Positions 8,615 to 59,754 of a stretch of DNA of 64,000 nucleotides are shown here, in pieces. This DNA is from a virus, in IMG/VR virus record IMGVR_UViG_3300021141_000706. One strand, given 5' to 3'. Each line of letters begins with the position of its first letter. The first letter of the stretch is position 1. A program made the position numbers and the translations under genes. The notes beneath the pieces were generated by a model. It saw nothing but the letters and a program-made list of their open reading frames with translations. It had not been told where the DNA came from and ran no database searches.

Positions 8615-9334
8615 TTATAAAAAATGTTTAGTTACTTCAGGTGTATAATTACCAGTAGTAAAAATCTTACAAAGGTTCTTATACTCTACATCACTTACTT
8701 TATAAAGTTGTAAGTCATTTCTTACAGTAGAAACAACATTGCCTGTATCTTCATCTATATAGTCTTCACCCCATATAGATGACGTTGGTCTAAATCCAGT
8801 TACCTCATATAATCTTTGTAAACACTCTATAAATATTGGTAGGTTTTCCGGTTTGAAAATACCTAAGTTCAAATAAATAATCGGATAACCCGGAATAATA
8901 TCATTTAATATATTCTCTTGTAATCTTTCAAGATAACTTTTACCAGCACTATTTTTTGATTCTTCAACTTCTGAAAAATAAACATCATTGTAGATAAGTG
9001 AACTTCGAGAGTTTTTACTAGCCATTTTAATCATATCATCTGATAGGGGTTTGGACAAATCAATAAACATATTTTTCCAAGTATCTTGAATATCTTCACA
9101 TTCTTTATTAATCCAATTCTCTTCAAAACTCATATCAGAAAATAATTGACTTCTAATAGCCCTTGATATATTATTAGTTGTAAAGAATTGATAACCTGAT
9201 TCGTATAATTTACATTTAGCTAGAGGTTCTTCATCTGTTAGATCATAGAATAGTTCTTGAATATCCAACTCAATAGGAAATTCAGATTTAATAATAACAG
9301 ATTCAAATAATTTATATGACTTTAAGTATCTCAT
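8615..9334 (-). CDS. Putative head-internal protein (N-terminal capsid-targeting-like motif)
   Basis: Starts MRYLKSYKLFES. Confidence 0.6.
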   Translation of the reverse strand: MRYLKSYKLFESVIIKSEFPIELDIQELFYDLTDEEPLAKCKLYESGYQFFTTNNISRAIRSQLFSDMSFEENWINKECEDIQDTWKNMFIDLSKPLSDDMIKMASKNSRSSLIYNDVYFSEVEESKNSAGKSYLERLQENILNDIIPGYPIIYLNLGIFKPENLPIFIECLQRLYEVTGFRPTSSIWGEDYIDEDTGNVVSTVRNDLQLYKVSDVEYKNLCKIFTTGNYTPEVTKHFL

Positions 9335-10590
9335 TATAAGTTTAATAATATTTTAAATGAATAATCATTAACATCAGTATCATCATCATACATTCTGTCA
9401 AATCTTGCCATATCAAAAACAACTTCTTCATAATCTAACTCTGGTAAAATACTTAACAAAGCTTCATCTATATCTGATTCTAATTTTTTAAGATTCATTT
9501 TACCTGTTAAATGTGAGTTATCATATCCACCTATGTTTATATTAATAGCTGGTTTATACATATCTAAAACTTTATCAACTGAATAATCTTTTTTCTTTTT
9601 AATATCATAACTGTGAATTGTAACGCTTCTTCTTTCATTGCCTGGAAATTCATCACCGTCTTTGAATCCATAATTATCAATATCAAAATTGACACAATTC
9701 CATTTTTTATCAGTTACATAATACTGTTCGTCACTTCTTCTTAACATTGTATTTGGGTAACTACCAATATTTAAAGTTGGTGAAATAATATCTATTAATA
9801 TATGTTTAACTATTCTTAACTTAGATTCTTCATTTACATTCATAACAGATATTAAACCATTGTATTTATTCTTATTTGGTTTATCATGATTTTCATAATT
9901 GCCATAAGCTATACATAAAACTGAATACTTATCTTTAGCAGATGGAATCTCATCATAAACATCATACATTCTATCATTTACGGTTTCAATATCAACCTTT
10001 GATAGTGAATTAAACATTTTATCAACTAAAGAAGTAATTTTTTGCCAATAACCTTCTCCAATAAAATGTTCTGTATTTAATCTAAGAGATGATTCACTTA
10101 CTTTATTGTTACTACGACCCCATTGAGAAGATTTTATATCTTCAAACCAATCATAGATACCATAATTCATTTGATTAGATTCTTGAATTTTATCAGCTGA
10201 AAAAATAGTTTCTAATTTAGGCATCTCATCATATATTTCAAACTTATCATATCCATATTTTTTATAGTCTTCTGGTATAAGTATTAAATAATTATCATTA
10301 GGATTTTTAGTAAATTGTTTAATAGCAAAATCTATAACTTTATCATGTATCATAGGAGCAATATGAGCTTCAATATTAGAATCAAAATAAACTACTTTAA
10401 CATTCAAGTCTTTTGATTTTGCCCATTTGTAAAACTCATTGGTAAACCAAGCACAATTGGCTTTATTTTTATCAAATGATTCTCCAAATCTAAGACTATA
10501 AACTTTAGACATATCAGTAATAAACTGATTAGCTATAGTTTCTAACTTAAACATCGATTCAAATATTTTATATTTAGTTAAATGTCTCAT
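9334..10590 (-). CDS. Putative head-internal protein with N-terminal Cys-His-Asp (papain/transglutaminase-like) domain
   Basis: MRHLTKYKIFES; NCAWF...HIAP...VIDFAIKQF; internal IQES and VSES. Confidence 0.55.
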   Translation of the reverse strand: MRHLTKYKIFESMFKLETIANQFITDMSKVYSLRFGESFDKNKANCAWFTNEFYKWAKSKDLNVKVVYFDSNIEAHIAPMIHDKVIDFAIKQFTKNPNDNYLILIPEDYKKYGYDKFEIYDEMPKLETIFSADKIQESNQMNYGIYDWFEDIKSSQWGRSNNKVSESSLRLNTEHFIGEGYWQKITSLVDKMFNSLSKVDIETVNDRMYDVYDEIPSAKDKYSVLCIAYGNYENHDKPNKNKYNGLISVMNVNEESKLRIVKHILIDIISPTLNIGSYPNTMLRRSDEQYYVTDKKWNCVNFDIDNYGFKDGDEFPGNERRSVTIHSYDIKKKKDYSVDKVLDMYKPAININIGGYDNSHLTGKMNLKKLESDIDEALLSILPELDYEEVVFDMARFDRMYDDDTDVNDYSFKILLNL

Positions 10591-11438
10591 TCTAAGTTAA
10601 GTTCTTTTAATATTTCTGTTACTTTATCAAGTCTTATCATTATTGACTCATCTTCAAACCAAGATTCAAGAGCTTCTGATTCATTTGTATCAAGTTGAGA
10701 ATACATATTCATTACACCTACTATATCTGTTAGTTTGAAGTTATTATTTTTTGGATCTAATAATATATTTAAGTTTTCTAATAGGTTTAGACTATCATCC
10801 CATAAAACTTCATAATCAGTTGTAAAGTATTTACTTATTATGTGTTCAGATGCTTCTGAGCCTTCTAAAAACGATTTTAGTTCGTTCCAATTTGTATTTA
10901 ATGATGGTTTAACATTTCTGTCTAGTTCATTAACAAGTAATGTCATATAATAAGCAATTGATGGTCTATCCAAATCTTCCTCTATAAAATCTTCATCTTT
11001 TGGTAAATTTGAAAAACAATTCCAAAAATCACTTCTATCACCAGTGGCTACCATAGTATCATCAAAAGGAATAATAACATAATCAACTGATGGTCCTTTG
11101 ATAAATCCACCACCATGTGACAATGCTCTATATGAAGAAGCACATATTAATGATTTGTTTCTTCTGGGCCAGTCTTTCCAAGATTCTAAATTAGAGATTA
11201 ATAGATTGTGATAGTTTTTAAAAGCATAAGGGGCAATTCTATCTTGTGATGAAATCTTTGGATTAACTAATAAAAAGTCACCACGATTTTCATCTTTTCT
11301 ATAAATTAAACAACCTTCAGTATAGTCTTTTCCCCAATTAAGAAATTTCTTACATTTTGTCATAAGTATCTCAATTACTTCGTCTTTTGTCAACGTAGTA
11401 GTATTTAGACTTTCATTTATGCTCTTTAAATGTTTCAT
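10587..11438 (-). CDS. Putative head-internal protein, possible ADP-ribosyltransferase-like fold
   Basis: MKHLKSINES; IYR...RNKSLICASS...YVIIP...ESWFE. Confidence 0.45.
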   Translation of the reverse strand: MKHLKSINESLNTTTLTKDEVIEILMTKCKKFLNWGKDYTEGCLIYRKDENRGDFLLVNPKISSQDRIAPYAFKNYHNLLISNLESWKDWPRRNKSLICASSYRALSHGGGFIKGPSVDYVIIPFDDTMVATGDRSDFWNCFSNLPKDEDFIEEDLDRPSIAYYMTLLVNELDRNVKPSLNTNWNELKSFLEGSEASEHIISKYFTTDYEVLWDDSLNLLENLNILLDPKNNNFKLTDIVGVMNMYSQLDTNESEALESWFEDESIMIRLDKVTEILKELNLE

Positions 11439-12755
11439 TTATTTACTTGCTTTAATAACTTTAATTCTTTCAGTTTGATATTTCATAATATCAACTTCTT
11501 GATGTTGCTTTAAGAAGTCAACCATCTTTTGATACATTTGAATTGTAATTCTACAATCAGTTAAGGCATCGTGATAGTTAGTCATATTAATTCCAAGAGC
11601 TGGTCCTACTTTAGACATAGAAGATGAAATTAAACCACCATCTCTTGATGATGTTCCAATAAAGTCAATTATATCTTTATATTTAGAATCTACTTCAGAT
11701 AGTTTTTGTAAAAGTGGTAAATAATATAATTGAATTAGCATCTTAGTATCAAATACTTCATTATTAATTTTATGACCATATCTACCAGCCAACATTGCCA
11801 TATCAAAACCAGCATTCTGTGCTATAAATAAACAAGGCTCATAATTGCCAGTCCAATCAAAGAATTTATCTAATATCTCTTGTTCATTTTTGTATTTGTA
11901 TTTACCTGAACCATAATGATTGAATCCTAATACCCATTTAGTTCTATCTTCTGGTGTACTAAATTTAGATTTAGTTTCATCTGTTAATTTAATCTTCTCA
12001 TCAAATAATCCTAATTCATTAAATGTATTTGATTGAAAACTATAATCAGTTGCTAAAGCAGATACTTGAGTTAATTGTTGTTGTTTAGGTCCACCTAAGC
12101 CTGTTGTTTCTGTATCTATCCAAAGCCATGTCATTTTAGATTTAGATTCTAACCATTCTAATATTTGTGGAATAGTTTTATACCACATTTTATTTTCATT
12201 TAGTGATTCAACTATACCTTGATTGTATTTGAAATTTACTTTTTCACCACTTGGCATTGAATAAGTTATATTATCAACATTCTTAACTTCATATTTATAT
12301 TCTGGTTTAACATATTTCTTACCAGTTCCTTTGTTAACATAAGCGATTGTTATATGTGGTTTGTAATCAGGGAAACTATTTGAGTTAGGAAACTCAGAAA
12401 GTTTATCATGTAAATCTTGAAGAGCACCATCAGGGTTAACATTAAACTTAACAACATCATAGTCTTTGTTTTCAAAAACACCAATACCATCAACTTCTAT
12501 ATTAATACTTCCTGTAAATCCTTCAAATACAGATTTAACATCTTCTTCTGTTACACCTTCATGTAAGCCGTATAATATAGTAACATGTGGATTTTCTTGA
12601 ATACCGTGAGCGTCATCACCACCAGTGTAAACATCTTCTGGATTAATGTAACTTGTTATCTCATCCCAGTTACTAACTGGAACTTCAACCATTACACAGC
12701 CATATTCATAACCAGATGATTCTTTTATAAATTGTATATAACTTTTAATTATCAT
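11439..12755 (-). CDS. Acb1/gp57B-like 2H phosphoesterase fused to DEDDh 3'-5' exonuclease
   Basis: HVTILYG and PHITIAY (two HxT); DTETTG, AQNAGFD, HDALTD; N-term MIIKSYIQFIKES. Confidence 0.85.
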   Translation of the reverse strand: MIIKSYIQFIKESSGYEYGCVMVEVPVSNWDEITSYINPEDVYTGGDDAHGIQENPHVTILYGLHEGVTEEDVKSVFEGFTGSINIEVDGIGVFENKDYDVVKFNVNPDGALQDLHDKLSEFPNSNSFPDYKPHITIAYVNKGTGKKYVKPEYKYEVKNVDNITYSMPSGEKVNFKYNQGIVESLNENKMWYKTIPQILEWLESKSKMTWLWIDTETTGLGGPKQQQLTQVSALATDYSFQSNTFNELGLFDEKIKLTDETKSKFSTPEDRTKWVLGFNHYGSGKYKYKNEQEILDKFFDWTGNYEPCLFIAQNAGFDMAMLAGRYGHKINNEVFDTKMLIQLYYLPLLQKLSEVDSKYKDIIDFIGTSSRDGGLISSSMSKVGPALGINMTNYHDALTDCRITIQMYQKMVDFLKQHQEVDIMKYQTERIKVIKASK

Positions 12756-13186
12756 ATTCTACCTTGTATTATTATTCTTCTTTCACCACCTCTATTATTA
12801 TATGAAAATCTGAAATCAAGTCCAGTTTCATCATGTAATCTTTTTACAGCAACTAAGAAATCTTTACCGTCTTCACTATCTGTTTCGTCTTCATTCATTT
12901 CCCAATTAATAGAACCATCTGATTTAATTTCACCGGTAATATCAATGTTTTTTTCATAAGGATTTTTATTTAGAGTCCAGTTTCTTGGATCAGATTCTTC
13001 TTTATTCATCATTCTACAATTAAAGTTTGGATTTTGCCAAACAGATATGCCCGATCCATAAGAAACATCTGATATCCAATGCCAACCATTATCTTCAAAT
13101 TCTTGAAAACAATCTTTTATAGAATCAAGAACTTGCTGATAGATTTGATTTTCGATTGATTCATTAAAACTTTTAAGATATTTCAT
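12752..13186 (-). CDS. Putative head-internal protein
   Basis: Start revised to MKYLKSFNES (13186), just after late motif. Confidence 0.6.
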   Translation of the reverse strand: MKYLKSFNESIENQIYQQVLDSIKDCFQEFEDNGWHWISDVSYGSGISVWQNPNFNCRMMNKEESDPRNWTLNKNPYEKNIDITGEIKSDGSINWEMNEDETDSEDGKDFLVAVKRLHDETGLDFRFSYNNRGGERRIIIQGRI

Positions 13187-13193: not shown

Positions 13194-13202
13194 TATATAT
13201 TA
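13194..13202 (-). promoter_or_regulatory. Candidate late promoter TAATATATA
   Basis: Heads the five-gene 13186-8615 operon. Confidence 0.6.
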
Positions 13203-13585: not shown

Positions 13586-13617
13586 AAAAAACCCACTCAT
13601 TTGAGTGGGTTTTTTTT
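13586..13617. terminator. Bidirectional intrinsic terminator
   Basis: AAAAAACCCACTCA-TT-TGAGTGGGTTTTTT between convergent genes. Confidence 0.85.
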
Positions 13618-13900
13618 ATTCTTCTCTATGAACTAATTTAATTTCATCTTCCCATCCTTCTGGAAGTTCTTCTTCCGGTTCTTGGTCAAATCCAAAATCC
13701 ATTCCAACTAGATAGTTCATAACTGAATCAATCATAATATCATCAGCTCCTCTTTCTTTCATATAAGCTTCATAGTCTTCTACTGTGTAGTAACCTTTTT
13801 CAGCCTGAAGTTTCTTTAATTCTGCTAATATACTAACAGCGATATCTTCATGAATATCTGATGATTGTCCATAAGCTTCGAATGTTTTTAAGTATTTCAT
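13616..13900 (-). CDS. Putative head-internal acidic protein
   Basis: MKYLKTFEA. Confidence 0.6.
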   Translation of the reverse strand: MKYLKTFEAYGQSSDIHEDIAVSILAELKKLQAEKGYYTVEDYEAYMKERGADDIMIDSVMNYLVGMDFGFDQEPEEELPEGWEDEIKLVHREE

Positions 13901-13902: not shown

Positions 13903-14334
13903 TTATCTAAAAATTTTTGAGTTAAATATATTATCTGATAATAAGTAATCAAAAGTTTGACTTACTTCTCCTTTACTTAAATCAGAATATTCTGTATCTA
14001 AAAGTAATTTAATTTTAGAATAAAGTTTAACTTGTTGGTCATTAAGTTTACCACCTTCTAAATCTTCTTCTTCTGATAATATTTCATCTAAGATTATTTC
14101 TAAGAATTTATTAGGATCAGATATACGACCACTATCAATAACTTGTTGAATTTCTTCAGATGTAAATGTTAATTCATTACATAAGTCACCTAATTCAGAA
14201 AGAATATCAGCCTTAGAAGGTTCATCACCTTGTTCAAATTCACTTTCATCATAGTTAATAATCTTATCAGCTAATTTGATAAATTCTTCAATTCTATCAA
14301 ATGATGCTTCGTTAAATTTCTTTAAGTATTTCAT
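13903..14334 (-). CDS. Putative head-internal acidic protein
   Basis: MKYLKKFNEA. Confidence 0.6.
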   Translation of the reverse strand: MKYLKKFNEASFDRIEEFIKLADKIINYDESEFEQGDEPSKADILSELGDLCNELTFTSEEIQQVIDSGRISDPNKFLEIILDEILSEEEDLEGGKLNDQQVKLYSKIKLLLDTEYSDLSKGEVSQTFDYLLSDNIFNSKIFR

Positions 14335-14859: not shown

Positions 14860-14868
14860 TATATATTA
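14860..14868 (-). promoter_or_regulatory. Candidate late promoter TAATATATA
   Basis: 4 nt before ATG at 14855. Confidence 0.6.
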
Positions 14869-16830: not shown

Positions 16831-17592
16831 TTAATAAGAAGAAGTATTATCTACCGTTAAATTGTTTAATTTATCTACAGCAGCATAGCCCATTCCAAAT
16901 CTATCAACAATACCTAACATAGAGTTAATCTGTTCAGCTGTTCTAACACCACCGGAAGCTTTAATCTTCATATCAGATTCATACTCTTTTATAGTATCAT
17001 ACATTATCTTAATTTTATTCATTTCGGCACCAACAGGAACTTTACCTGTGGATGTTTTGATAAAATCAGCTCCTGCTTCCATACAGATGTGAGTTGCTAT
17101 TTTAGTTTCATCTTCTGTTAAAACACCAGACTCAACAATAACTTTTAAGATAATAGGTTCGCCATTTTTATTTTTACTTGAATGACAAATATCAACTAAT
17201 GTAGAAACCTCTTCTACTAAATAATCTACTTCATATAAATGGTCTTTACCTTGAAGTTCGTGATAGTTAAGAACCATATCTACTTCATCAGCGCCATTAG
17301 AAATAACTTGATTAGTTTCTGATATTTTTTGTTTTATTGTATTTGTACCTTCTGGAAAAGAAACAACAGTACAAACAAGAACTTTTGAATTTTCTAATTG
17401 TTTTGCCGCTAAAGCAACATGTTTTGGAAGAACACAAACAGATTTAACACTTAACATATTAGCTTTTTCACAAAGCTCAATAATATCTTGGTCTGTAGCA
17501 GATTCTTCTAATAAAGTATAATCAATCATATCATTATACTGGAACATTGTGTTCTCTTTAATAAATTGTATGTAGTTCTTAATCTTTTTCAT
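16831..17592 (-). CDS. deoC: Deoxyribose-phosphate aldolase with capsid-targeting-like N-terminus
   Basis: IDYTLL, VCTVVSFPEG, GADEVDMV, KVIVES, FIKTSTG, IKASGG; leader MKKIKNYIQFIKEN. Confidence 0.93.
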   Translation of the reverse strand: MKKIKNYIQFIKENTMFQYNDMIDYTLLEESATDQDIIELCEKANMLSVKSVCVLPKHVALAAKQLENSKVLVCTVVSFPEGTNTIKQKISETNQVISNGADEVDMVLNYHELQGKDHLYEVDYLVEEVSTLVDICHSSKNKNGEPIILKVIVESGVLTEDETKIATHICMEAGADFIKTSTGKVPVGAEMNKIKIMYDTIKEYESDMKIKASGGVRTAEQINSMLGIVDRFGMGYAAVDKLNNLTVDNTSSY

Positions 17593-17593: not shown

Positions 17594-18577
17594 TTACTTT
17601 TCAAAATTTGCCATTGTTTTTACAAATAACTTCATATCTTCATCAGTTCTCATAATTTTAGAAACGTGAGGAAGATTCCAAGGTGAGTGACCAGAGATTT
17701 TCCAACCATCGATATACCAAGCAAACATTGGTTTGTTTAAGAACGATGTTTGTTGTAATTCACCAAATGTACCACCACTTGTTACATCATTAAATCCTAC
17801 AAATACAGCATCACATTTATTTACTATTAACTCATCTTCTGGCTCGATTGTTTGAGAGAAGATTCTTGATATTTCATCAAATTGTCTTGGATCTTTAGTT
17901 TCTTCATATTCACCAGATTTGAACTTACCCATTTCTTTACCAAAATTAGGATTCTTAGTTCTATCCATTTCTTTTCTAACTGGATTTAAGATAGCTGGTC
18001 TATCATAATATTTAAGAGTGTAGTTATTACCACTATCAACAAATTGTGCTAAATGGTCACCATCCACAACATAAGCGGGTTTTAAGACAATATTTTCACC
18101 GTGATAAGGAATAGTAATCTTTTCCATTTCTTCATAAGAAACACCTTTATTAACAACTTCAAATTCATATTCAACTTGTGCTCTCCAGCCTGCTCCAACA
18201 TCTTTAGCTTTGTCCATACCACCGGCAAGGTATAAAGAATTCAATTCAAAAGCTCTAAAGTTCTTTTTGATATCATCTAAAGTTGTTAAGTCAAAAAGAT
18301 CTAATTTACCAATCAATTCAGTATAGAATCTTTTTTTCTTATTAACAATATAGTTCATTATCTTTTCATCAAACCATTTAACAAGTCTGTCTTTAATATC
18401 ACTAAAGAAACCTTCGTTTAGTGATTCAGTTGTTAAAAGTGGAGTTAAATCTTTTTTAAGATTTGAAATTTCACTTGATGGGATATTTTTAGCAATATAA
18501 TTAAGTATTGCTTCTAAGTCTTTTTGGTCTTTTGAATCTTCATATGACTCGTTGAATTGCTGCCAGTTTTGGATCAT
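17594..18577 (-). CDS. Nucleoside 2-deoxyribosyltransferase/dNMP N-hydrolase-like protein
   Basis: LYLAGGM...GWR...LNPV...D..IVNKCD...SGGTFGE; start MIQNWQQFNES. Confidence 0.7.
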   Translation of the reverse strand: MIQNWQQFNESYEDSKDQKDLEAILNYIAKNIPSSEISNLKKDLTPLLTTESLNEGFFSDIKDRLVKWFDEKIMNYIVNKKKRFYTELIGKLDLFDLTTLDDIKKNFRAFELNSLYLAGGMDKAKDVGAGWRAQVEYEFEVVNKGVSYEEMEKITIPYHGENIVLKPAYVVDGDHLAQFVDSGNNYTLKYYDRPAILNPVRKEMDRTKNPNFGKEMGKFKSGEYEETKDPRQFDEISRIFSQTIEPEDELIVNKCDAVFVGFNDVTSGGTFGELQQTSFLNKPMFAWYIDGWKISGHSPWNLPHVSKIMRTDEDMKLFVKTMANFEK

Positions 18578-18619
18578 AAAAATATTTTGTGTTTTGTGTA
18601 TATATTTAATTTTCATTTG

Positions 18620-28430: not shown

Positions 28431-29618
28431 TTATTTTATTTTCTTAAATACTATTGAAACTTGTTTAAGTTTAATTTCAGTTACTTTATTTCTTTCTTTC
28501 AATCCATTTTGAACAGTTGGTGATGGAAATTCACTATTTCTATTCACTTTTAAATCAAGATTAAGTGACCAGGATTTAGTACAATTATCTAAATCAGATA
28601 ATAATGTATCTAAGTCTGAACCTGTTAGAACTAATTTATCATTAGAAGCATAACTCATACTTAACTTTTCAACATTAAGAGTTTGATAATATCTACTCCA
28701 AAGAGGCTTGTCAGTATCTTCATCATATCTACTTGAATACTCTTTAGCTGCCTCAATTATTTCATCTCCAAATCTTCCGTTTCTACCATTGTAGAATAAT
28801 GGACCTTTAACTTTATACTTTATAATATAGTTGAAATTATATTTTTCTTCTTTTAAATAATCTTTAATTCTTTCAGCAACATCATTTAATAAAGAATCAA
28901 CGTCATTTGAGTAAACAAGATTTCTACTTTCACCAACTTTAACATCTAAACTTAAATAATCTTGTTCTTTACTGAAATAAGGTTTTACATCAACTGGTAA
29001 TTCATCTTCAAGTTCTAAACAGATATCATCTACTAATTGTTGAACTTCTTTAACTTTTTCTAATTCATCATATTTTGCTATCATTATAATCATTGGAAAG
29101 TTAGCAGGATCTTTTAACTTATCAGGATAATAAGTTCCTTTAGAATTTTTCTTCATTATAAAATTTTCTCCTGGATAAATATCAGAATCACTTAATCTTT
29201 GACCTCTATAAGTATCATCTTGTTTAATTTCATCTTTAGAAATATAAATAACGTCTCTACCAATTTTACCATGTTCACCACCACCAGTTGACTTATAATC
29301 TTTGGCTAAATAAAGATTCCAATCTCTTAGAAGCATTGCTAATTTAAGTTTGTTTTCTGGTAAATCATCAATGCTTACTTTAGTTAGTTCATGTTTCATT
29401 ACTTGTTGGTCACCGGTTGAAAATGGACTATCTTTAAGACCAGTAGTTGCTCTTTTCATTTCTCTCCATCTAAGATTCAACATAGGATAGATTCCTAATA
29501 ACTTCTTACCTAAGAATCCTAAAATAGCTTGTGGTATAAATCTAATAGATCTTTTTTCACTTGATGTAAGTTCTTCGTTTACTTTATTAAAGTTGTTATA
29601 TGATTGTAAATGTTTCAT
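28431..29618 (-). CDS. Putative head-internal protein
   Basis: MKHLQSYNNFNKVNEE. Confidence 0.6.
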   Translation of the reverse strand: MKHLQSYNNFNKVNEELTSSEKRSIRFIPQAILGFLGKKLLGIYPMLNLRWREMKRATTGLKDSPFSTGDQQVMKHELTKVSIDDLPENKLKLAMLLRDWNLYLAKDYKSTGGGEHGKIGRDVIYISKDEIKQDDTYRGQRLSDSDIYPGENFIMKKNSKGTYYPDKLKDPANFPMIIMIAKYDELEKVKEVQQLVDDICLELEDELPVDVKPYFSKEQDYLSLDVKVGESRNLVYSNDVDSLLNDVAERIKDYLKEEKYNFNYIIKYKVKGPLFYNGRNGRFGDEIIEAAKEYSSRYDEDTDKPLWSRYYQTLNVEKLSMSYASNDKLVLTGSDLDTLLSDLDNCTKSWSLNLDLKVNRNSEFPSPTVQNGLKERNKVTEIKLKQVSIVFKKIK

Positions 29619-29622: not shown

Positions 29623-30072
29623 TTAATCTATTTTTCTAAAAGCAAATGTTACAGAGTCTATCCACCAATTAGATTCAAACGGTAAATACTCTACTGATTT
29701 ATAATATCTATAATCAGGTATTTTTACAACATAAATATACTCTAATTCTAAGCCTAGTTCACCTTTTGCGTAAGATTCAGCAAATAGTAAATTTTCTTTT
29801 ATTTCATCTATGGTAAACCTTTTATGAGTTGGTTGTCCCGCCTCATCAATTATTCTTTTATCAACTGTAACATCTATCGTTTTAATAGTTTGATTTTTAG
29901 TTTGTAAATCCCAAGAACCAAAAGAATTTAATTCAGAAAAATCCATTTTTTGAGTAGTAGATTCTTTTACACTAACATTGAATCCATCGTGTTTAAGTTC
30001 TAAAAATAAATCTCTAAACCAAGAAAAATCTCCAGATTCAAATAACTTATTATATGTTTTTAAATACTTCAT
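29623..30072 (-). CDS. Putative head-internal protein
   Basis: Start revised to MKYLKTYNKLFES. Confidence 0.6.
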   Translation of the reverse strand: MKYLKTYNKLFESGDFSWFRDLFLELKHDGFNVSVKESTTQKMDFSELNSFGSWDLQTKNQTIKTIDVTVDKRIIDEAGQPTHKRFTIDEIKENLLFAESYAKGELGLELEYIYVVKIPDYRYYKSVEYLPFESNWWIDSVTFAFRKID

Positions 30073-30073: not shown

Positions 30074-30493
30074 TTAATTATTATGTTTTGTGAAGTAAAC
30101 AAGTATGTCTATTTCACCTGCTGTATTTTTTAAGTCTTTAAGTTCTTCTACATCATAGAGTTCATAATCATGTCTATTACCAGATTCAAATTGACACATT
30201 TCTATTTTAGATAGATTAATATCATATTCACTCAAAAAATCTTCTAATCTAAAGATAGAATCTTCAGCTAATTGTTTTTTTTCACTTGATTCAATAAAAT
30301 CTATTTGTATTTGAAACTCAGATACCACATCATCAATATATTTATTTATATGTACATTAACATCTAAATCAATTAATTCCAAAAAGATATCCTTAACATC
30401 AGATTCTAACTTACTAAATAATCTTTCTGATTCAATTTCAAACTTATTAGGTGGATAAGATTCAAATATTTTATATGTTTTTAAGTGTTTCAT
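30074..30493 (-). CDS. Putative head-internal protein
   Basis: MKHLKTYKIFES. Confidence 0.6.
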   Translation of the reverse strand: MKHLKTYKIFESYPPNKFEIESERLFSKLESDVKDIFLELIDLDVNVHINKYIDDVVSEFQIQIDFIESSEKKQLAEDSIFRLEDFLSEYDINLSKIEMCQFESGNRHDYELYDVEELKDLKNTAGEIDILVYFTKHNN

Positions 30494-31088: not shown

Positions 31089-31097
31089 TATATATTA
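31089..31097 (-). promoter_or_regulatory. Candidate late promoter TAATATATA
   Basis: 5 nt before ATG 31083. Confidence 0.6.
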
Positions 31098-32008: not shown

Positions 32009-32017
32009 TAATATATA
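32009..32017 (+). promoter_or_regulatory. Candidate late promoter TAATATATA
   Basis: 5 nt before RNA ligase ATG. Confidence 0.6.
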
Positions 32018-32022: not shown

Positions 32023-33360
32023 ATGAAATTATTTAGATATACAGAATTTATAAAGGAAAGCCTTTCTCAAAATACTATTCCAACATATGAACAAGCATTA
32101 GAACTTTGTTCTGTTGAGGAAGCGCCATTTTATGAATCTAAGATGGTTGTGGATGGATTTAATGTATCTGTATTCAACTATCGTCTTGCTCAATACAAAG
32201 ACTTTGCTTATCCAATTCCAGATAAGCCAGATTTAAAAGGTTATGAAATGAGAGGTTTAACTTTTGTTTTCAATGAAGATGGTTCATTATATAATAGATA
32301 TGTACTACTTGAAAAGTTCTTTAACTTGAATCAAGTACCGGAATCTTTATACTCAGTTGTTAAGAACTATAAAATCAAATTTGTGAATAATAAAGAAGAT
32401 GGTTCTATTGCTTCTTTTGTTAAGTTACCAAACGGTAAGATTGTTGGTAAATCTAAAATGGGATTTGATAACGACCAAGCTGATGGTATTAACAGAGTTT
32501 ATAAAACTAACAAAGAAGTTAAATCTTTAGTTGATTGGGCTTTGAATAATAATATCGTGCCAATTTTTGAATATGTGGCACCAAACAATCGTATTGTTTT
32601 AAGATATCCAAGCGAAGAATTAATCTTATTAAGATTAAGAGATAATGTTACTGGTAAACACATTGATATTAGAGACCACTTAGATAAAGTAGGTTCTATT
32701 AGAGTTGCGCCATTTGAAGATGATGTAAGAGACTTAGATCACTTAGTTGAGCTAACTGCTACTCAAGTAGATAAAGAAGGCTCTATTGTTACTTGTGAAG
32801 ATGAACACGGTAGAGATTTCTTCTTTAAGTTGAAGACTCCTTGGTATTGTGAACGTCACGGTTTACTTACTCAAGACTTATATAGAGAACATATTATTAT
32901 TGGTTATATCTTAGATGATAAGATAGATGATATCTTAGGTCAGATACCAGAAGATGAAAAAGAAGCACATATTAGAATTAATAAAATAATTACTATTGTC
33001 AAAAAATCAATTTCTGATAAAGTGTCAGAAATTGAAAGAGTTTACGAACAATTTGTCAAATCTGGAATTTCTAAAAAAGATTATGCCATAAATCAAAGAA
33101 AAGGTAATCCTAACTTTGGTTTTGTAATGAATATGGTTAAAGCCGATGATTTGAAAAAGATGTCTAAAGAAGAAATTCTTGATATCTATGATAATATGGA
33201 AGACTATGAAAAAGCATTACAAAGATGTGAGCCATATGAAATGGCTAAAGGTTGGTTAAGAGATTTAACTAAGAGATTGAATTTATCAAGAGAATGGTTA
33301 CAAACAAAAGATAAAACTTTATTTTTTCAAGATCCAGAAGAAAGTGAAGATGATAATTAA
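32023..33360 (+). CDS. RNA ligase 1 (T4 Rnl1/gp63-like) with capsid-targeting-like leader
   Basis: EMRGLTF, KFFNLNQ, KEDGS, FEYVAPNNRIV, EG, KLKTPWY; MKLFRYTEFIKES. Confidence 0.9.
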   Translation: MKLFRYTEFIKESLSQNTIPTYEQALELCSVEEAPFYESKMVVDGFNVSVFNYRLAQYKDFAYPIPDKPDLKGYEMRGLTFVFNEDGSLYNRYVLLEKFFNLNQVPESLYSVVKNYKIKFVNNKEDGSIASFVKLPNGKIVGKSKMGFDNDQADGINRVYKTNKEVKSLVDWALNNNIVPIFEYVAPNNRIVLRYPSEELILLRLRDNVTGKHIDIRDHLDKVGSIRVAPFEDDVRDLDHLVELTATQVDKEGSIVTCEDEHGRDFFFKLKTPWYCERHGLLTQDLYREHIIIGYILDDKIDDILGQIPEDEKEAHIRINKIITIVKKSISDKVSEIERVYEQFVKSGISKKDYAINQRKGNPNFGFVMNMVKADDLKKMSKEEILDIYDNMEDYEKALQRCEPYEMAKGWLRDLTKRLNLSREWLQTKDKTLFFQDPEESEDDN

Positions 33361-33629
33361 CTTACAACACCTCCAATATTCATCAATATTGGTGCTGAAT
33401 TTCTCATGTCGCCTTTAGATATAAATGTTTTGATATTATCAATATTTATTGATGAATTCATTTCATCTGGATATTCAGTAAAGTAATCTACTAAAAATTT
33501 TATATTTTCCTCTTCACTCATATCATCATTCCAAATGTTTTTTAAATTAGTCTTATTGATTTCAATAAAATCTAAAACCTTCTTGTTTAATACTGGATTC
33601 CATTCAGACCATTCTTTTATAAATTTCAT
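33357..33629 (-). CDS. Small late protein
   Basis: MKFIKEWSEW; late motif at 33634. Confidence 0.55.
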   Translation of the reverse strand: MKFIKEWSEWNPVLNKKVLDFIEINKTNLKNIWNDDMSEEENIKFLVDYFTEYPDEMNSSINIDNIKTFISKGDMRNSAPILMNIGGVVS

Positions 33630-33642
33630 TAATTATATATTA

Positions 33643-35703: not shown

Positions 35704-36960
35704 TTAATTTGCCATATCATATGAATCTTCATAAGATCCACCAGTATCTCTTAATAATCTATCAGAATCATCCCAATAAACATTACAAGCTGTTCCTGTA
35801 TCACTATTTATATAACATATAGTATCACAATAAGGATATTCACCAAAATCAGCGTCATCTAACTTAACTTCAATTGTACCTTTTCTAACTGAATTACCAT
35901 CAGTAAAATTTTCATCTGGTTCCATAGATTGTCTTTTCTTATACCACCAACCATTCTTTTCAGCAAATTGTTTGAATAATTCAACATCAGCATCAAGCGT
36001 TGTATAAATTCTATCCATAAATTTAATAGGTTGTCCATCTAATTTACAATCCCAAAGAATTGCTCTGCCCTTGATTCTATCATCAGTGTATTTTTCAGAT
36101 TCAATACTGCCACTATCACCATAAAGTATAACAAGTGATACTTGAGGGTTTTGTGTATAGATATCAAAATAATCAGAACTAACTTCAGCCATACAAGAAT
36201 TATTTAATGAACCACCACCATCAACATATCTATCTTCATCATTATTATCATACCAGTAAGCAATTTTATCACCTTTAACGATATCAAATTGTTTAAGAGC
36301 ATCTTTAGCAAAATCATAAGTTGCTTTATAAACATTAGTAAATTGTTCAATTTCTTGATCAGCAAAAGGTATTTTAGCCGCAGTAAGAATAGCTCTTACA
36401 ACTCTACCTATTTTAATATTATTTCTTGATGTTGACCAAATTCTTTGATCCTCAGCTTCTTTAGGCTCCATAGCTTCTTTGTTAATAACTCCAATTTTAT
36501 CACCTTCATATTCTTTAAACATAACATAGATTTTACCAGAAGTTCTACTAACAGTTTCTGCTAATATTAAACCTATCTCCCCGGCATTTGGTGCCCAACA
36601 ATTGTATTTTGCTTTATCATAACCAAGAGCTTCAAATATTTTATTATTTCTATCACTTGTAGTTAGGTATTTACCAGATTCTGTAATTACCCAAGTTTCT
36701 GGTTTATCTTTAGTTAATTCTTGAACTTTTCTATCAGGAGTAAAACTAACAGCATCTTTTAAGTCTGTTACATCAATATAATTTTGAGTAACACCATCAA
36801 CATCTTTAGAATAAAGACTTAATAATTGGGTAGCTAATTTATTAGCTTTCATCTTATTTAATAAGTTAATAAACTTTTTTGAGTAAACTACTTTAGACTC
36901 TAGTAAAAGTTCATAAACCACTTTCTCTGAAATATAATCTCCGTATTTAAGAATTGCCAT
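35704..36960 (-). CDS. Putative head-internal protein of unknown function
   Basis: MAILKYGDYISE..LLLES; NSCM, GRAILW, MDRIY, YPYCDT; late motif at 36984. Confidence 0.6.
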   Translation of the reverse strand: MAILKYGDYISEKVVYELLLESKVVYSKKFINLLNKMKANKLATQLLSLYSKDVDGVTQNYIDVTDLKDAVSFTPDRKVQELTKDKPETWVITESGKYLTTSDRNNKIFEALGYDKAKYNCWAPNAGEIGLILAETVSRTSGKIYVMFKEYEGDKIGVINKEAMEPKEAEDQRIWSTSRNNIKIGRVVRAILTAAKIPFADQEIEQFTNVYKATYDFAKDALKQFDIVKGDKIAYWYDNNDEDRYVDGGGSLNNSCMAEVSSDYFDIYTQNPQVSLVILYGDSGSIESEKYTDDRIKGRAILWDCKLDGQPIKFMDRIYTTLDADVELFKQFAEKNGWWYKKRQSMEPDENFTDGNSVRKGTIEVKLDDADFGEYPYCDTICYINSDTGTACNVYWDDSDRLLRDTGGSYEDSYDMAN

Positions 36961-38284: not shown

Positions 38285-38298
38285 ATCTTATATATTAA

Positions 38299-38871: not shown

Positions 38872-39456
38872 TTATTCTGTCTCAATTTCAAATTCTTCTT
38901 CATCACCAAACTTATCATCGATTTCGATTTTTAAGTCAATTAAAAATTCCTCATCAATATCTTTAATTTTAACATTTTTAGTTATTTGACCAATAACCTC
39001 AAATGTATCTAGATTATATTTTTTAAATTTAATGTAACACATTTCAATATTTTCATAAGAGAAGTCTTTAGTAGCATCTTTAGGCATAGCATCTTTAATA
39101 TCAATTGCTAAGTAAAGATTATATGTTGCCTCATCATCTGTAAACTTGATAGTTAAAGAGTCATACATTTTTGAATATTTAGAAACCTCTGAACTATCTA
39201 ATCTAACGCCTAAATCTTTTAAAGACATTTTAGATTTATCTCTACTTTCAGACTTAGCCTTTTGTATAGATTTACTACCGTCTTTTTCTTTTTCTAATTC
39301 ATCAGCTGGTCCATTAACATCCGATTCACCTTCTTGAAACTCAAACATCTTATCAAACTTTCTCTTTAATTGGTTAAGTGCTATTTCAACATATGATTCA
39401 GGAGTATCATTCATAATCTCCTCGTTGATAAATTCTGAGTATTTTCTAATTTTCAT
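38872..39456 (-). CDS. Putative head-internal acidic protein
   Basis: MKIRKYSEFINEE; late motif at 39461. Confidence 0.6.
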   Translation of the reverse strand: MKIRKYSEFINEEIMNDTPESYVEIALNQLKRKFDKMFEFQEGESDVNGPADELEKEKDGSKSIQKAKSESRDKSKMSLKDLGVRLDSSEVSKYSKMYDSLTIKFTDDEATYNLYLAIDIKDAMPKDATKDFSYENIEMCYIKFKKYNLDTFEVIGQITKNVKIKDIDEEFLIDLKIEIDDKFGDEEEFEIETE

Positions 39457-39481
39457 AATGTATATATTAAATATTATTCCT

Positions 39482-40964: not shown

Positions 40965-40982
40965 AACTTAATATATAAGTCT

Positions 40983-41345
40983 ATGAAGAAAATGAGTGAA
41001 TTAATCAAAGAAAGTGTAGGTTATGTAGGAGTTGGTTGTCAAAGCCTTAATTCTGAGTTAATATACTTGACAGAAGGTGGTAATCAGGTTGGGAGTCTTG
41101 TACTTATTTATAACGAAAATACAGCTTCTATTTTTTCAGTAGAAGTTCTAAATAAACATAGAGGAAAAGGATATGGTAAGAAATTAGTAGTTGAGGCTAT
41201 TAGTAGAGCTAAGTCTAAAGGTTCATATGTTTTAGAGTTAAATACAGAAACAGATAATACTGTTGCTAATAATCTTTATCAATCTTTAGGATTTGAATTA
41301 AGAGGATTAAAAGATGATTTTAATAATTACATAAAAACATTATAA
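40983..41345 (+). CDS. GNAT acetyltransferase with capsid-targeting-like leader
   Basis: HRGKGYGKKL, NTVANNLYQSLGF; MKKMSELIKES; late motif at 40969. Confidence 0.88.
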   Translation: MKKMSELIKESVGYVGVGCQSLNSELIYLTEGGNQVGSLVLIYNENTASIFSVEVLNKHRGKGYGKKLVVEAISRAKSKGSYVLELNTETDNTVANNLYQSLGFELRGLKDDFNNYIKTL

Positions 41346-47067: not shown

Positions 47068-47490
47068 CTATTTAAGAATCTCTTTTATTTTTCTATCTCT
47101 TTCTAAAATTTTGAATTTAATTTCTAAATATTCTTCTATCTCTGAAGGTAAGTTAAGGTTATTCTTTTTTAACTCATCGTAAAAAGGTTTACCTAAAACA
47201 TTTAATGTTGAAATAGCAACAGCAAGATGTGGATCACCATAACCATCAACTTCAATATCTTCATCTAAAACATGATAAGTTGTTTTATTAATTGAGTAGT
47301 TCATAGTGCTACCGCCCCAAGTAAGATATTGACCAGATGATAATGTAGATGTTGTGATTGAAGAATTTGTACCAGATATGTTGATAACTCCAGAATTACC
47401 TACTGAGCTTGATATAGAAGGTGTTCCAAATACTGGAGCACCTATTGCGCTTGTGTGAACTGTTTGTCCGGCTATGTTTACGAATCCCAT
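47068..47490 (-). CDS. Hypothetical protein with S/T/G-rich N-terminus and C-terminal tag
   Basis: Ends LERDRKIKEILK. Confidence 0.6.
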   Translation of the reverse strand: MGFVNIAGQTVHTSAIGAPVFGTPSISSSVGNSGVINISGTNSSITTSTLSSGQYLTWGGSTMNYSINKTTYHVLDEDIEVDGYGDPHLAVAISTLNVLGKPFYDELKKNNLNLPSEIEEYLEIKFKILERDRKIKEILK

Positions 47491-47520: not shown

Positions 47521-48065
47521 TAGATAATCTTACTAATTTGAATATGGCGATAAAGACTTTGAAACTCTTCTCTTATTTCTTCTTTGTATTCATATGAATA
47601 ATTATTTGAAAAATAATCATATTCTTTTCTCTCTACTTTCTTACTAATTGATTCATAATTGGCTTTAACTTTATCAAAGCAGTTTTCTTTATCAGTCCAC
47701 TTAACCATATTGTTAATTAAGTCAAAGTCAATCTTTTTGAATCCGTCAAAAAACTCAACTTGAGCATGTGAGTATAGATAGTGTCTAATAACTTTATCAT
47801 AATAATCTTCTTCTAAAACTCCTTTAGGATTTGATAACTCTGTTGTTGTAAAGTAAAACTCAACACCTATGTTTATTAAATGTTTAACTAATTTTACTAT
47901 TGCGTTTGAAACTCTATTGTCTAAAAAAACATAAACTATATCATCCTCAACAAAACAAACCGGTATATGTTCATATTTTTTGAACATAACAAATTTACCT
48001 TTAACAACCCAAGTAGGATTGACTAAAGGTCTAAATTTATCTGGTATTAAGTTATTTAAGTCCAT
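47520..48065 (-). CDS. Hypothetical protein with degenerate C-terminal tag
   Basis: Ends LYRHIQISKII. Confidence 0.6.
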   Translation of the reverse strand: MDLNNLIPDKFRPLVNPTWVVKGKFVMFKKYEHIPVCFVEDDIVYVFLDNRVSNAIVKLVKHLINIGVEFYFTTTELSNPKGVLEEDYYDKVIRHYLYSHAQVEFFDGFKKIDFDLINNMVKWTDKENCFDKVKANYESISKKVERKEYDYFSNNYSYEYKEEIREEFQSLYRHIQISKII

Positions 48066-48381
48066 TCTCTTTTAATATCTTCAAAAATAATCTTTTTTGT
48101 TTTTCTCTGGTTTGACCATTACCTTCATCACGATAATAACCTTGGTCTTTGTTTGGAGAGTATTTTACTTTGTGTTTAGTGTCCCACTTTGTAGTGGTGT
48201 GAGTTTTAGCTCTAAAGTGTATTTCAGTTCCGATATAAATTGCTATAGTAGGTCTTTGATGATTAATGTCATTAACATCTCTAAATCCTCGCCACCACCT
48301 ATTGGTACAAACAGCGCGAGACATTCTACGAATGACTATTCGTTCTTCCATATACCTACGCCATGCTCTATTTCGGATCAT
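48052..48381 (-). CDS. Basic hypothetical early protein
   Basis: Arg-rich; TATCTTTG (48386-48393) 4 nt before ATG. Confidence 0.55.
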   Translation of the reverse strand: MIRNRAWRRYMEERIVIRRMSRAVCTNRWWRGFRDVNDINHQRPTIAIYIGTEIHFRAKTHTTTKWDTKHKVKYSPNKDQGYYRDEGNGQTREKQKRLFLKILKENGLK

Positions 48382-50306: not shown

Positions 50307-50972
50307 TTAATCTTTTAGAGGAATTTCGGGATTAACTTCAAAGTTTCTATTTAAATAATCTTTTAGTTCATTTTCAATATAGTGTTGAGGAACTTCCATA
50401 TTAGAATCCATATTAGCCATCTTCTCAGATAACTCTAATGAAAACTTTTGTAGAACTTCTGGTTTAATTGCTTCTACTAATCTATCGGATACAACGAATG
50501 CTCTTGTGAATCTATCTTTTTCGGTAGTTAAATCACCTTCAGCGATTCTCATTGTTGCGTCAATAACTTTCTTTAAGAAGTCTGGATAATCGTGTCCTGG
50601 ATCTGCTAAGATAGGAGCAACAACTTTATTAAATGCTCTTGATGTACCTAAAACATAACCAAAAATTGCTAATATTGGAAAGAAAGGTGCTAATAACATT
50701 GGAACAATTCTGTGTACGGCTTTAATAATACCTACTTTAAGTTCAGTTCCTTTTTTAGCGGCTCTAGCATCTTTGAATAAGGCATTTAACATACCAAATG
50801 TAAATACTTTACCATTTTCTTCTAAGTATTTTGCTAAATGACCTCTATGAGCGTGATATAAATATGTGTTGATTTCTTTTTCATCAGTTACACCTAATTT
50901 TATAAGTTCAGCCTTGATATTACTATCAAACTTCTCTAAAATCAAAAAATCGTCATATTTTTTAAGTCTCAT
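50307..50972 (-). CDS. Putative head-internal protein
   Basis: Start revised to MRLKKYDDFLILE; late motif at 50977. Confidence 0.6.
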   Translation of the reverse strand: MRLKKYDDFLILEKFDSNIKAELIKLGVTDEKEINTYLYHAHRGHLAKYLEENGKVFTFGMLNALFKDARAAKKGTELKVGIIKAVHRIVPMLLAPFFPILAIFGYVLGTSRAFNKVVAPILADPGHDYPDFLKKVIDATMRIAEGDLTTEKDRFTRAFVVSDRLVEAIKPEVLQKFSLELSEKMANMDSNMEVPQHYIENELKDYLNRNFEVNPEIPLKD

Positions 50973-51085
50973 AATGTATATATTATTTTTACTTAGCATA
51001 AAAATAACATTGAAAAAATCAGTGTAATTTTTAAGAATTAAAGAACTTTATTAAAAATGACTTTTATACATGAATAGATATATTG

Positions 51086-58404: not shown

Positions 58405-59143
58405 ACTTTTTTATCCATTCTTTGAATTTCATAACTGATTCTTTTAGTGATTCTACAAAATCAAACTCTCTAAGAAAATCTCCAAAGTCTTCAAGATAAC
58501 CTTTCTTACTTTCATCGTTCTTATCTTTAGTCCATTGCCAGTTAAAAGAAAGAACATCTGGAGTTTTGAATCCAAAGAAACTTAAAACTTGTTTTTCTAA
58601 CTTAACAGCTTCTTCACCGTTCCAGTTGTGACCAGTTGCTATAACACCAACTTCTTTATCTTTAAGTAAATTAGATTCACCTAAAGTTGTATGTCTGTTA
58701 TCTAACCAAGTTAATCTTTCAACTAACTCACCATATATAGAATTCATTTTACCCCAACGAATTGAACCAAAGAAAATAACTATATCAGCATCAAAAATAG
58801 CATTTGCTACTTTATACATTTCGTCTGATTTATTATTCAAAGATGCCCAACATCTAATGTTACCTGTTGGATTTTTTTCTTTATCATCTAACTTAGCTTC
58901 TTTCAATCCACAAGTATTACCTCTTTTAGTTGAAACATTTCCTTCACAAGGATATATTTTTAATTTAGCAACATTAATCAATTGAACTCTATCAGAACCT
59001 AACTTTTTAATAAGTTCATCAGCTATTATTGATGATTTAGGAAGTTCATTATCACCTTCCCATCTGTTAGATGTTGTTAAGAAAAGAATTTTTTTATTCT
59101 TATTTTTCTTTAAGTAATTGTAAAGTTTCTTTAAGTTATCCAT
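58403..59143 (-). CDS. NAD(P)H-dependent FMN reductase / flavodoxin-like protein
   Basis: LTTSNR..KSS, IYPCEG, ADIVIFFGSIRWG, ERL; late motif at 59152. Confidence 0.75.
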   Translation of the reverse strand: MDNLKKLYNYLKKNKNKKILFLTTSNRWEGDNELPKSSIIADELIKKLGSDRVQLINVAKLKIYPCEGNVSTKRGNTCGLKEAKLDDKEKNPTGNIRCWASLNNKSDEMYKVANAIFDADIVIFFGSIRWGKMNSIYGELVERLTWLDNRHTTLGESNLLKDKEVGVIATGHNWNGEEAVKLEKQVLSFFGFKTPDVLSFNWQWTKDKNDESKKGYLEDFGDFLREFDFVESLKESVMKFKEWIKK

Positions 59144-59178
59144 TATGAAGTTATATATTAAAATTTATATATAGGTAT

Positions 59179-59754
59179 ATGAAATTTCTTAAAAAATTTG
59201 AAGCCAAATCAGAAGACTCTAAAGAAAAGTTAATAGAGTATGCTGATGATATTGTAAAAGTTATAACAACTTATTACTCAACTCATACTGGTGATTTATG
59301 TGATCAAATTGATGAAATACTTTGGAATACCTCAAATGTTGATTTAGATGGTTGGGAGAATGATGGTGTGCTAACTGAAGAGATGATGAGAGAAGTAGTT
59401 GAGGATTATAAAGGTGCTTGGTCCAGAGAAATAGAAAAATTACTTGATGTATATTATGATTGTAGACATTTTGTTAAACATGTAAATAAAGACTTAGTTG
59501 AAGATATAAAAGAAGTATTTTTAGAATATTCTGATATGGGTAAGGTTGAAGTTAGTAAAACGTCTAGGTTAAATGATGATAGATATTCTGTAAAAATTTA
59601 TATTAAAGATATATTATTTAAAATTAACTTTGAAGAAGTATTAGATAGAATAAAAGAATTAGGTTTTGAACATTATTCCATAGAGTGTGTCAAAAATGGT
59701 TATATAGAAAGTATGACTATTGAATTTTGGAAGCCATTACCAGAAGAAGAATAA
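59179..59754 (+). CDS. Putative head-internal protein
   Basis: MKFLKKFEA. Confidence 0.6.
   Translation: MKFLKKFEAKSEDSKEKLIEYADDIVKVITTYYSTHTGDLCDQIDEILWNTSNVDLDGWENDGVLTEEMMREVVEDYKGAWSREIEKLLDVYYDCRHFVKHVNKDLVEDIKEVFLEYSDMGKVEVSKTSRLNDDRYSVKIYIKDILFKINFEEVLDRIKELGFEHYSIECVKNGYIESMTIEFWKPLPEEE

Follow-up and report, generated by a model that had tools for sequence, protein, structure and literature searches.

A capsid-targeting sequence (CTS) of bacteriophage T4, reportedly the subject of work by Mullaney and Black in 1996, is the nearest described counterpart of a short N-terminal leader shared by many proteins of an uncultured huge phage, of which a 64,000-nt stretch was analysed (IMG/VR record IMGVR_UViG_3300021141_000706; hereafter the window). 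In T4, the CTS is found on the internal proteins IPI, IPII, IPIII and Alt and is removed by the prohead protease gp21 (PMC9026906, PMC3012670), and mutational mapping showed that residues 4 and 7 serve targeting and that residues 8 and 10 serve processing (PMC9026906). IPII and IPIII begin MKTYQEFIAE/A (here and below, the slash stands after the conserved Glu), a sequence that an earlier note on the window, made from its letters, quotes for T4 internal proteins. In the phiKZ-like giant phages, the proteases phiKZ gp175 and SPN3US gp245 process head and ejection proteins (PMC5694885, PMC10052503). What these phages have in common with the lineage studied here is their giant size and a gp21-related protease cutting after Glu (by prediction in our case); many of their inner-head proteins are processed, some paralogues have identical N-termini, their heads contain about 50 proteins, and the mass of protein ejected is large. 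They differ in that most propeptides of phiKZ and SPN3US comprise 80–160 residues with the motif (S/A/G)-x-Glu, only about 8–19 proteins are processed, and a short uniform leader has not been described. Phage P1 likewise loads counter-defence proteins, the Dar anti-restriction proteins, into its capsid and delivers them with the DNA (PMC9024508, PMC12810830), but loading there follows a hierarchy of particular Dar and Hdf proteins and does not depend on a shared cleavable leader. In the literature we found no paper tying capsid targeting to huge phages. An analogy is provided by encapsulins, HK97-fold shells into which unrelated enzymes are brought by a short terminal peptide that can be transferred between proteins; there, however, the peptides are usually C-terminal, are not removed and bind the shell instead of a scaffold, and neither DNA nor delivery is involved.

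Compared with the T4 CTS, the leader of the window is likewise a putative 10–19-residue N-terminal propeptide on otherwise unrelated proteins, in which aromatic residues are followed by aliphatic-x-Glu (MKTYQEFIAE/A in T4; MKIRKYSEFINE/E and MKLFRYTEFIKE/S here), and, as read from the genes alone, it belongs to putative late genes of a phage lineage with a gp20/gp21/gp23-type head module. The differences are that at least 75 genes per genome are tagged here (counted in the relative LR756502.1) against a handful in T4, about ten times as many proteins; that the lineage has a second, commoner leader type, MK[YH]LK[ST][YF]..(F)E/S; that the cargo includes RNA-repair and nucleotide enzymes; that the mature parts are acidic, whereas T4 internal proteins are basic; and that the protease is fused to a repeat scaffold with a leader-like unit. 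The reading we favour, with rather more confidence than doubt, is that the leaders are a T4-type capsid-targeting propeptide expanded to about a tenth of the proteome. The first 8–15 residues, which are basic, aromatic and amphipathic, would late in infection attach the protein to the scaffold core of the prohead under assembly, a T4-type (S77-like) head protease would cut after the Glu of the hydrophobic-x-Glu motif, and the mature protein would stay within the capsid and probably exit with the DNA; we infer these steps of docking, cleavage, packaging and injection from sequence.

The leader in the window and in related genomes

The window has a G+C content of 28–30%, and its genes include those for a gp32-like single-stranded-DNA-binding protein, for an endolysin and for a protein whose C-terminal domain is of the type IX secretion kind. 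The topoisomerase II large subunit of the window shares 78% identity with its counterparts in the uncultured phages LR756502.1 (642 kb) and LR745206.1 (635 kb), and positions 3.3–54 kb of the window are collinear with 466–511 kb of LR756502.1 at a DNA identity of 65–78%. The full-length genomes used for comparison were the syntenic LR756502.1 and the more distant LR756504.1 (636 kb), whose topoisomerase is 43% identical to that of the window.

All 19 N-termini that the earlier note had quoted between positions 8,615 and 59,754 were present where it placed them, MKYLKSFNES beginning at 13186 and not at the first TTG (13216), and MIQNWQQFNES at the ATG at 18577, within a longer open reading frame (ORF) ending at 18616. 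Fourteen leaders were clear and five weaker. The clear ones take forms such as MK[YH]LK[ST][YF]..FE/S and K.Y..FI.E/S, with Glu at residue 8–15 (MKIRKYSEFINEE and MKHLKTYKIFES are examples, one per type). A strict pattern matched 14 of 121 N-terminal Met and none of 303 internal Met in the window, 75 of 1177 versus 4 of 2878 in LR756502.1, and 20 N-terminal versus 2 internal sites in LR756504.1; several of the 'internal' matches in the relatives are probably true starts or fused genes, and one of the 14 window matches, MIRNRAWRRYMEE at 48052–48381, is likely false. When a scoring matrix trained on the LR756502.1 leaders alone was applied to the window, with 2477 internal Met as decoys, 14 N-termini scored at a level reached by at most one decoy. 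Four of the 19 listed leaders could not be separated from chance by the matrix (MKKMSELIKES, MIQNWQQFNES, MAILKYGDYISE and MRLKKYDDFLILE), and MKFIKEW passed but is weak and only six residues long. MKKMSELIKES, MAILKYGDYISE and MRLKKYDDFLILE have LR756502.1 orthologues or paralogues with canonical or conserved leaders, and MIQNWQQFNES is supported by the MIKSW/MIKNW..FNE[ST] leaders found on orthologues of DeoC, an aldolase tagged in the window. The occurrence of the leader in the window is confirmed. Tagged genes make up about 22% of the window genes and at least 8% of those of LR756502.1 (at least 75 genes, with at least 20 in LR756504.1), and lineage-wide the leader is carried by roughly 8–10% of all proteins.

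Among 89 strict leaders, in which Glu is fixed by the search pattern itself, Glu stood at residue 8–13 and was most commonly followed by S, then by N, E or A; the residue two before it was I, F, Y or L in 78, which the pattern partly imposes. The hydrophobic-x-Glu ending was recovered independently in the window by the LR756502.1-trained matrix. A second pattern, [YFW]..[YFW][ILV].E, was built only from the four mapped positions of the T4 CTS and occurred at N-termini versus elsewhere 5 versus 3 times in the window, 28 versus 51 in LR756502.1 and 25 versus 54 in LR756504.1, an N-terminal enrichment per residue of about 28-fold in the window and 8-fold in both relatives. This match concerns the second (Y..FI.E) leader type; the commoner MK[YH]LK[ST][YF] type is in a different register and has in common with the T4 CTS a basic-aromatic start and the hydrophobic-x-Glu at its end. 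Signals of the Sec, Tat or lipoprotein kind were ruled out, as the leaders have no hydrophobic core and differ from the real signal peptides encoded at 26125–28305 and 55407–57617. The tagged genes and associated sites, with matrix scores where given, are as follows.

8615..9334, minus strand: ORF of 239 aa, leader MRYLKSYKLFE/S (score 28.7, 0 decoys); no known family; last of a five-gene operon headed by TAATATATA at 13194–13202
9334..10590, minus strand: ORF of 418 aa, leader MRHLTKYKIFE/S; no known family; the LR756502.1 orthologue starts MKIKTYSLFLE/S
10587..11438, minus strand: ORF of 283 aa, leader MKHLKSINE/S; phrog_12810 (function unknown); a relative's homologue starts MITKYKLFE/K
11439..12755, minus strand: tagged fusion of 438 aa, leader MIIKSYIQFIKE/S; 2H phosphoesterase (Acb1/LigT-like) plus RNase_T-type exonuclease
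12192..12215, minus strand: fusion junction, residues 181–188, IVE/SLNE/N, two tandem aliphatic-x-Glu motifs
12752..13186, minus strand: ORF of 144 aa, leader MKYLKSFNE/S; first gene of the operon, the motif ending 7 nt before the ATG
13194..13202, minus strand: promoter-like motif TAATATATA, heading the operon 13186–8615
13616..13900, minus strand: ORF of 94 aa, leader MKYLKTFE/A (score 28.2)
13903..14334, minus strand: ORF of 143 aa, leader MKYLKKFNE/A (score 33.0)
14860..14868, minus strand: TAATATATA heading 14855–13616, one untagged and then two tagged genes
16831..17592, minus strand: DeoC/DERA aldolase of 253 aa, leader MKKIKNYIQFIKE/N; PF01791, 1.6e-19
17594..18577, minus strand: ORF of 327 aa, weaker leader MIQNWQQFNE/S; AATATATA motif about 25 nt upstream of the ATG at 18577
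28431..29618, minus strand: ORF of 395 aa, leader MKHLQSYNNFNKVNE/E; the orthologue starts MRHIQSYNEHINE/E
29623..30072, minus strand: ORF of 149 aa, leader MKYLKTYNKLFE/S; the orthologue starts MKYLKEYKIFE/N
30074..30493, minus strand: ORF of 139 aa, leader MKHLKTYKIFE/S; best matrix score, 36.1
31089..31097, minus strand: TAATATATA heading 31083–28431, an HD-domain gene and then three tagged genes
32009..32017, plus strand: TAATATATA, 5 nt before the Rnl1 start codon
32023..33360, plus strand: RNA ligase 1 (Rnl1) of 445 aa, leader MKLFRYTEFIKE/S; PF09511, 7.5e-20; the orthologue starts MKKLHRYNSFIKE/S
33357..33629, minus strand: ORF of 90 aa, weak, short leader-like start MKFIKE/W (score 7.2); TAATATATA at 33634–33642
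35704..36960, minus strand: ORF of 418 aa, leader MAILKYGDYISE/K and second site LLLE/S at residue 21; very large phage-only family; TAATATATA at 36984–36992
38872..39456, minus strand: ORF of 194 aa, leader MKIRKYSEFINE/E, the closest to the T4 CTS; TAATATATA at 39461–39469
40983..41345, plus strand: short GNAT acetyltransferase of 120 aa, weak start MKKMSELIKE/S; TAATATATA at 40969–40977; a relative's homologue starts MKHIKTYKE/T
50307..50972, minus strand: ORF of 221 aa, moderate start MRLKKYDDFLILE/K; TAATATATA at 50977–50985; the orthologue starts MKNIIKYNHFLILE/K
59179..59754, plus strand: ORF of 191 aa, leader MKFLKKFE/A (score 21.6); variant motif TTATATATA upstream

A peptide module on unrelated proteins

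Within the leader, codons vary as they do genome-wide: the Ser after Glu is encoded by TCA, TCT, TCC, TCG, AGT and AGC, Leu4 by TTA, CTA, CTT and TTG, and the Glu of the leaders by GAA and GAG in a ratio of 59:30, near the genomic 60:40. Because synonymous codons vary in this way, selection acts on the peptide and not on codons, and the free variation rules out a codon-level signal. As a separate observation on the window and LR756502.1, codon 2 of the leaders was AAA in 50 of 55 Lys, and codon 3 of MK[HY]L leaders was preferentially CAC or TAC (37/61), whereas the genome prefers CAT (66%) and TAT (78%); a translation-start effect on top of the peptide signal is possible.

When the first 18 residues were removed, the 14 tagged window proteins fell into 14 BLAST families and the 75 of LR756502.1 into 71, and a paralogous N-terminal domain was ruled out, the bodies of the tagged proteins being unrelated. 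The cargo consists mostly of small orphans, with a few RNA-repair and nucleotide enzymes (Rnl1, the 2H phosphoesterase-exonuclease, DeoC and, in the relative, a CCA-adding enzyme). A Pfam family was found for only 5 of the 71 LR756502.1 tagged proteins (CCA/poly(A) polymerase, Rnl1, cold-shock domain, SET domain and carbohydrate-binding module), and a PHROGs search with ten tagged orphan proteins assigned no function. The domain calls of the earlier note held for DeoC (16831–17592), Rnl1 (32023–33360), GNAT (40983–41345) and the 2H phosphoesterase with DEDD exonuclease (11439–12755).

Residue 21 of DeoC aligned with residue 7 of solved aldolases, so that the 14 extra residues correspond to the leader, and residue 23 of Rnl1 aligned with residue 7 of T4 Rnl1 (2c5u). 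Among 47 DeoC homologues, a conserved leader block was followed, directly after Glu, by an indel hot spot of 0–24 residues and then by the invariant core FxYNxMIDYTLL. Since DeoC orthologues carry different leaders (MKKIKNYIQFIKE, MKYLKNWKLFE, MIKSWNKFNE), the variants appear to be interchangeable. AlphaFold models of DeoC (predicted local distance difference test score, pLDDT, 90) and of the 418-aa protein encoded at 35704–36960 (pLDDT 91) placed the leader outside the fold at low confidence, at residues 1–13 in DeoC and at residues 1–20 in the 418-aa protein, the body of which begins at about residue 22. These alignments and models support the leader being a dispensable added module on DeoC and Rnl1. 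The proposal that the tag has been grafted onto ordinary enzymes was borne out for these two, which are extended relative to solved homologues, but not for the GNAT protein, which is N-terminally truncated and not extended and has a weak leader.

Two further comparisons bear on cleavage. The 2H-exonuclease fusion of the window corresponds to two separate LR756502.1 genes, both of which encode a leader; where the two halves of the fusion meet, the part of the second leader responsible for targeting has been lost, and IVE/SLNE/N is kept where the leader of the LR756502.1 exonuclease ends (..QLNE/NNMWYK), a comparative hint of cleavage. The family of the 418-aa protein is phage-only, comprises 2700 clusters at 50% identity and has four tagged paralogues in LR756502.1; in most members, the leader is followed 8–9 residues on, just ahead of the folded body, by a second L[IL]LE[SA] site, which again hints at cleavage. 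For the fold of the 418-aa protein there was no clear match: searches gave only a weak GNAT-like hit and an SH3-like subdomain (residues 87–168) in the PDB, while in BFVD the matches were phage proteins that are uncharacterised and in the Atlas viral clusters without a name. A 304-aa ORF of LR756502.1 (22663–23577) carries a canonical N-terminal leader and, at residue 129, a second complete leader, MKYLKAYKLFES; this is either an in-frame fusion of two tagged genes or a small polyprotein.

Promoter-like motif, C-terminal tag and head module

The promoter-like motif TAATATATA occurred 17 times in the window versus 4.75 expected, and none of the shuffles reached 17. Units headed by AATATATA contained 11 of the 14 strict tagged genes and 16 of 71 other genes in the window, 67 of 75 tagged versus 303 of 841 untagged genes in LR756502.1 (p = 4e-20), and 12 of 20 versus 181 of 849 in LR756504.1. 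The motif also precedes the genes for the portal, the protease, the capsid protein and the endolysin, supporting the view that tagged genes and head genes share a promoter-like class and would hence be co-regulated.

The spacing of (T)AATATATA, surveyed genome-wide in LR756502.1 and in the window, falls into two classes, the motif ending 4–8 nt or 18–30 nt before the ATG; the endolysin gene (37304–38284) belongs to the short class. Should transcription begin a few bases past the motif, in the manner of T4 late promoters, mRNAs of the short class would be leaderless or nearly so. The window sites of the survey were:

13194–13202, 14860–14868, 31089–31097, 32009–32017, 33634–33642, 38289–38297, 39461–39469, 40969–40977 and 50977–50985: motif sites

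A C-terminal tag, R..K[IL]..[ILM][LG], is present on 82 LR756502.1 genes, concentrated at 620–640 kb and 0–20 kb, and on the window genes at 23542–23856, 42255–42755, 47068–47490, 60829–61293 and 63772–64000. No LR756502.1 protein carried both this tag and the N-terminal leader (6.7 expected), and C-tagged genes were rare in AATATATA-headed units (8/82, 10%, versus 39% of untagged genes). The earlier claim of two mutually exclusive address codes is thus upheld in LR756502.1, the window being too small for this test, with 5 C-tagged and 14 leader-tagged genes and 0.8 overlaps expected.

The head machinery was read in the relatives LR756502.1 and LR756504.1, its homology to T4 being based on Pfam and PHROG profiles and pairwise BLAST. 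Both relatives encode a gp21-type protease within a gp20/gp23 head module. In LR756502.1, two tagged genes (MKYLSKYNMFIE.. and MKHLRKFEE..) are followed by genes for a gp20-like portal (1.2e-58), a head maturation protease of 699 aa (phrog_207, 6e-28; weak S77 match) and a gp23-like capsid protein (4.5e-28). Alignment of the protease with T4 gp21 paired GEFDHP with GELNHP and VSSRAAG with VSSRGLG, blocks in which we take the catalytic His and Ser to lie; when the capsid protein and the protease were searched by sequence against solved structures, no match was returned. The protease gene is:

LR756502.1 225272–227371: head protease fused to a scaffold-like region

The C-terminal ~500 residues of this protease are scaffold-like and consist of 14-residue repeats, YSEY[ILV]AE[NH]LDKNIx, behind which comes an acidic tract. 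The number of units was 9–13 in every one of 120 homologues, each unit being an aliphatic-x-Glu site, and the protease-scaffold fusion is conserved in more than 4000 database proteins. The repeats matched the T4-derived pattern 11 times in LR756502.1 and 11 times in LR756504.1. This likeness applies to leaders of the Y..FI.E type and was in part spotted only afterwards, making it a lead and not a result; a complex prediction of two copies of the repeat region with residues 1–45 of the 38872–39456 protein scored 0.01, which counts neither way. The N-terminus of the capsid protein resembles that of gp23 (KKWGPVLEN versus NKWKPLLEG) and keeps VLE/N and (S/Q)INE/N in 120 homologues.

Readings of the leader and neighbouring genes

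The earlier note had read the leaders as capsid-targeting signals of an injected payload. This interpretation is partly supported: the shared peptide signal, the addition on DeoC and Rnl1, the T4 CTS form and, in LR756502.1, the exclusivity of the two tags stood, the T4-type protease of the lineage and the promoter class shared with the head genes speak for it as well, and the extension of GNAT fell. Several points weigh against capsid targeting as we favour it. The phage is uncultured, the evidence comes from sequence, and the head machinery was taken from a relative with about 70% DNA identity. The cut site of the capsid protein is only predicted, because its whole N-terminal region is conserved, and an unbiased leader matrix placed the scaffold repeats no higher than roughly the top 1% of internal Glu sites. 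The motif AATATATA stands at the head of 36% of untagged genes as well, the label 'late' coming from the head and lysis genes alone. A cargo of at least 75 species is far above that of any characterised phage, and a role for pre-packed DeoC is not obvious. Finally, the mature parts of tagged proteins exceed other proteins in acidity (median net charge −0.037 versus −0.016 per residue), and the core cut motif is not depleted inside them (11 observed, 9.6 expected), the broader [IL].E showing only a weak relative deficit (0.90 versus 1.10).

A bolder form of the capsid-targeting reading, which we put forward tentatively and consider doubtful as a whole, is that the leader mimics one unit of the scaffold repeat (YSEY[IL]AE/N), so that a tagged protein would co-assemble as a pseudo-scaffold subunit and be freed by the cut that dismantles the scaffold. 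About a hundred proteins, or a tenth of the proteome, would be loaded in this way, a repertoire comparable to that of a secretion system, and the C-terminal tag would mark a non-overlapping set from another transcription class.

It is unlikely, in our estimate, that the leader is read not by the prohead but by other late machinery, be it a chaperone, a ClpX-type system for which the leader would be an N-terminal degron limiting protein lifetime, or another late assembly or compartment to which it would dock. The Met-basic-aromatic-Leu-basic start appears to resemble chaperone- and ClpX-binding N-motifs, a modular peptide-level tag on unrelated proteins would suit such machinery, the phage seems to have DnaK-like and DnaJ-like genes (by N-terminal reading only) and a probable GrpE, and the second, C-terminal tag in the same genomes indicates that the lineage uses short address peptides generally. 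This leaves unexplained, however, the invariant Glu with the hydrophobic residue two before it, the four mapped T4 CTS positions, the identity with the scaffold repeat, the cut motif at the fusion junction and the tagged genes abutting the portal gene.

Somewhat less likely again is that the head protease recruits and cleaves the tagged proteins without their being injected, so that they would serve as accessory scaffold, filler or decoy that is expelled or degraded. T4 gp22, gp67 and gp68 are largely expelled or degraded during assembly. In line with such a fate, the leader resembles the scaffold repeat unit, most tagged proteins are small, acidic orphans, and two tagged genes lie beside the portal gene, near where T4 has the prohead core genes 67 and 68. 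Against it, folded enzymes (the DeoC barrel with pLDDT 90, Rnl1 and the 2H-exonuclease) keep intact catalytic domains, and wholesale degradation is not expected because the bodies show no excess of cut motifs.

A nucleic-acid or translation feature, in which the shared start would provide an unstructured A/U-rich 5' coding sequence for mRNAs beginning a few bases after AATATATA, has in its favour that the motif often ends 4–8 nt before the ATG and that AAA at codon 2 and C-ending His/Tyr codons at codon 3 are preferred, but it is largely refuted and very improbable, given that synonymous codons vary freely at Leu4, Lys5, Glu and the following Ser, that leaders occur on operon-internal genes without a promoter, that at least 89 untagged LR756502.1 genes have the same 4–7 nt spacing, and that conservation concerns classes of residues, in leaders whose length varies.

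If capsid targeting is true, huge phages would carry a programmable payload of about a hundred protein species, addressed by a 10-residue tag nearly interchangeable with the T4 signal. A large share of orphan genes would gain a function as virion cargo, likely in first-minute counter-defence and RNA repair, and a simple sequence rule would become available for predicting the virion proteomes of uncultured phages. The second leader type is close to the T4 CTS and testable in T4, and the likeness of leader and scaffold repeat suggests how the T4 CTS itself may find the core.

Among the neighbouring genes, the N-terminal sequences point to DnaJ-like (22487–23545) and DnaK-like (33762–35648) proteins and a probable GrpE among the products of 22487–23545, 24440–24889 and 33762–35648; these chaperone-like proteins are without N-terminal leader and C-terminal tag. 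The two large proteins with signal peptides (55407–57617 and 26125–28305) are secreted; SprB and PKD repeats together with a CHU_C type IX secretion domain are present in one of them and a GEVED domain in the other. Both proteins point to the Bacteroidota, of which the host is probably a member.

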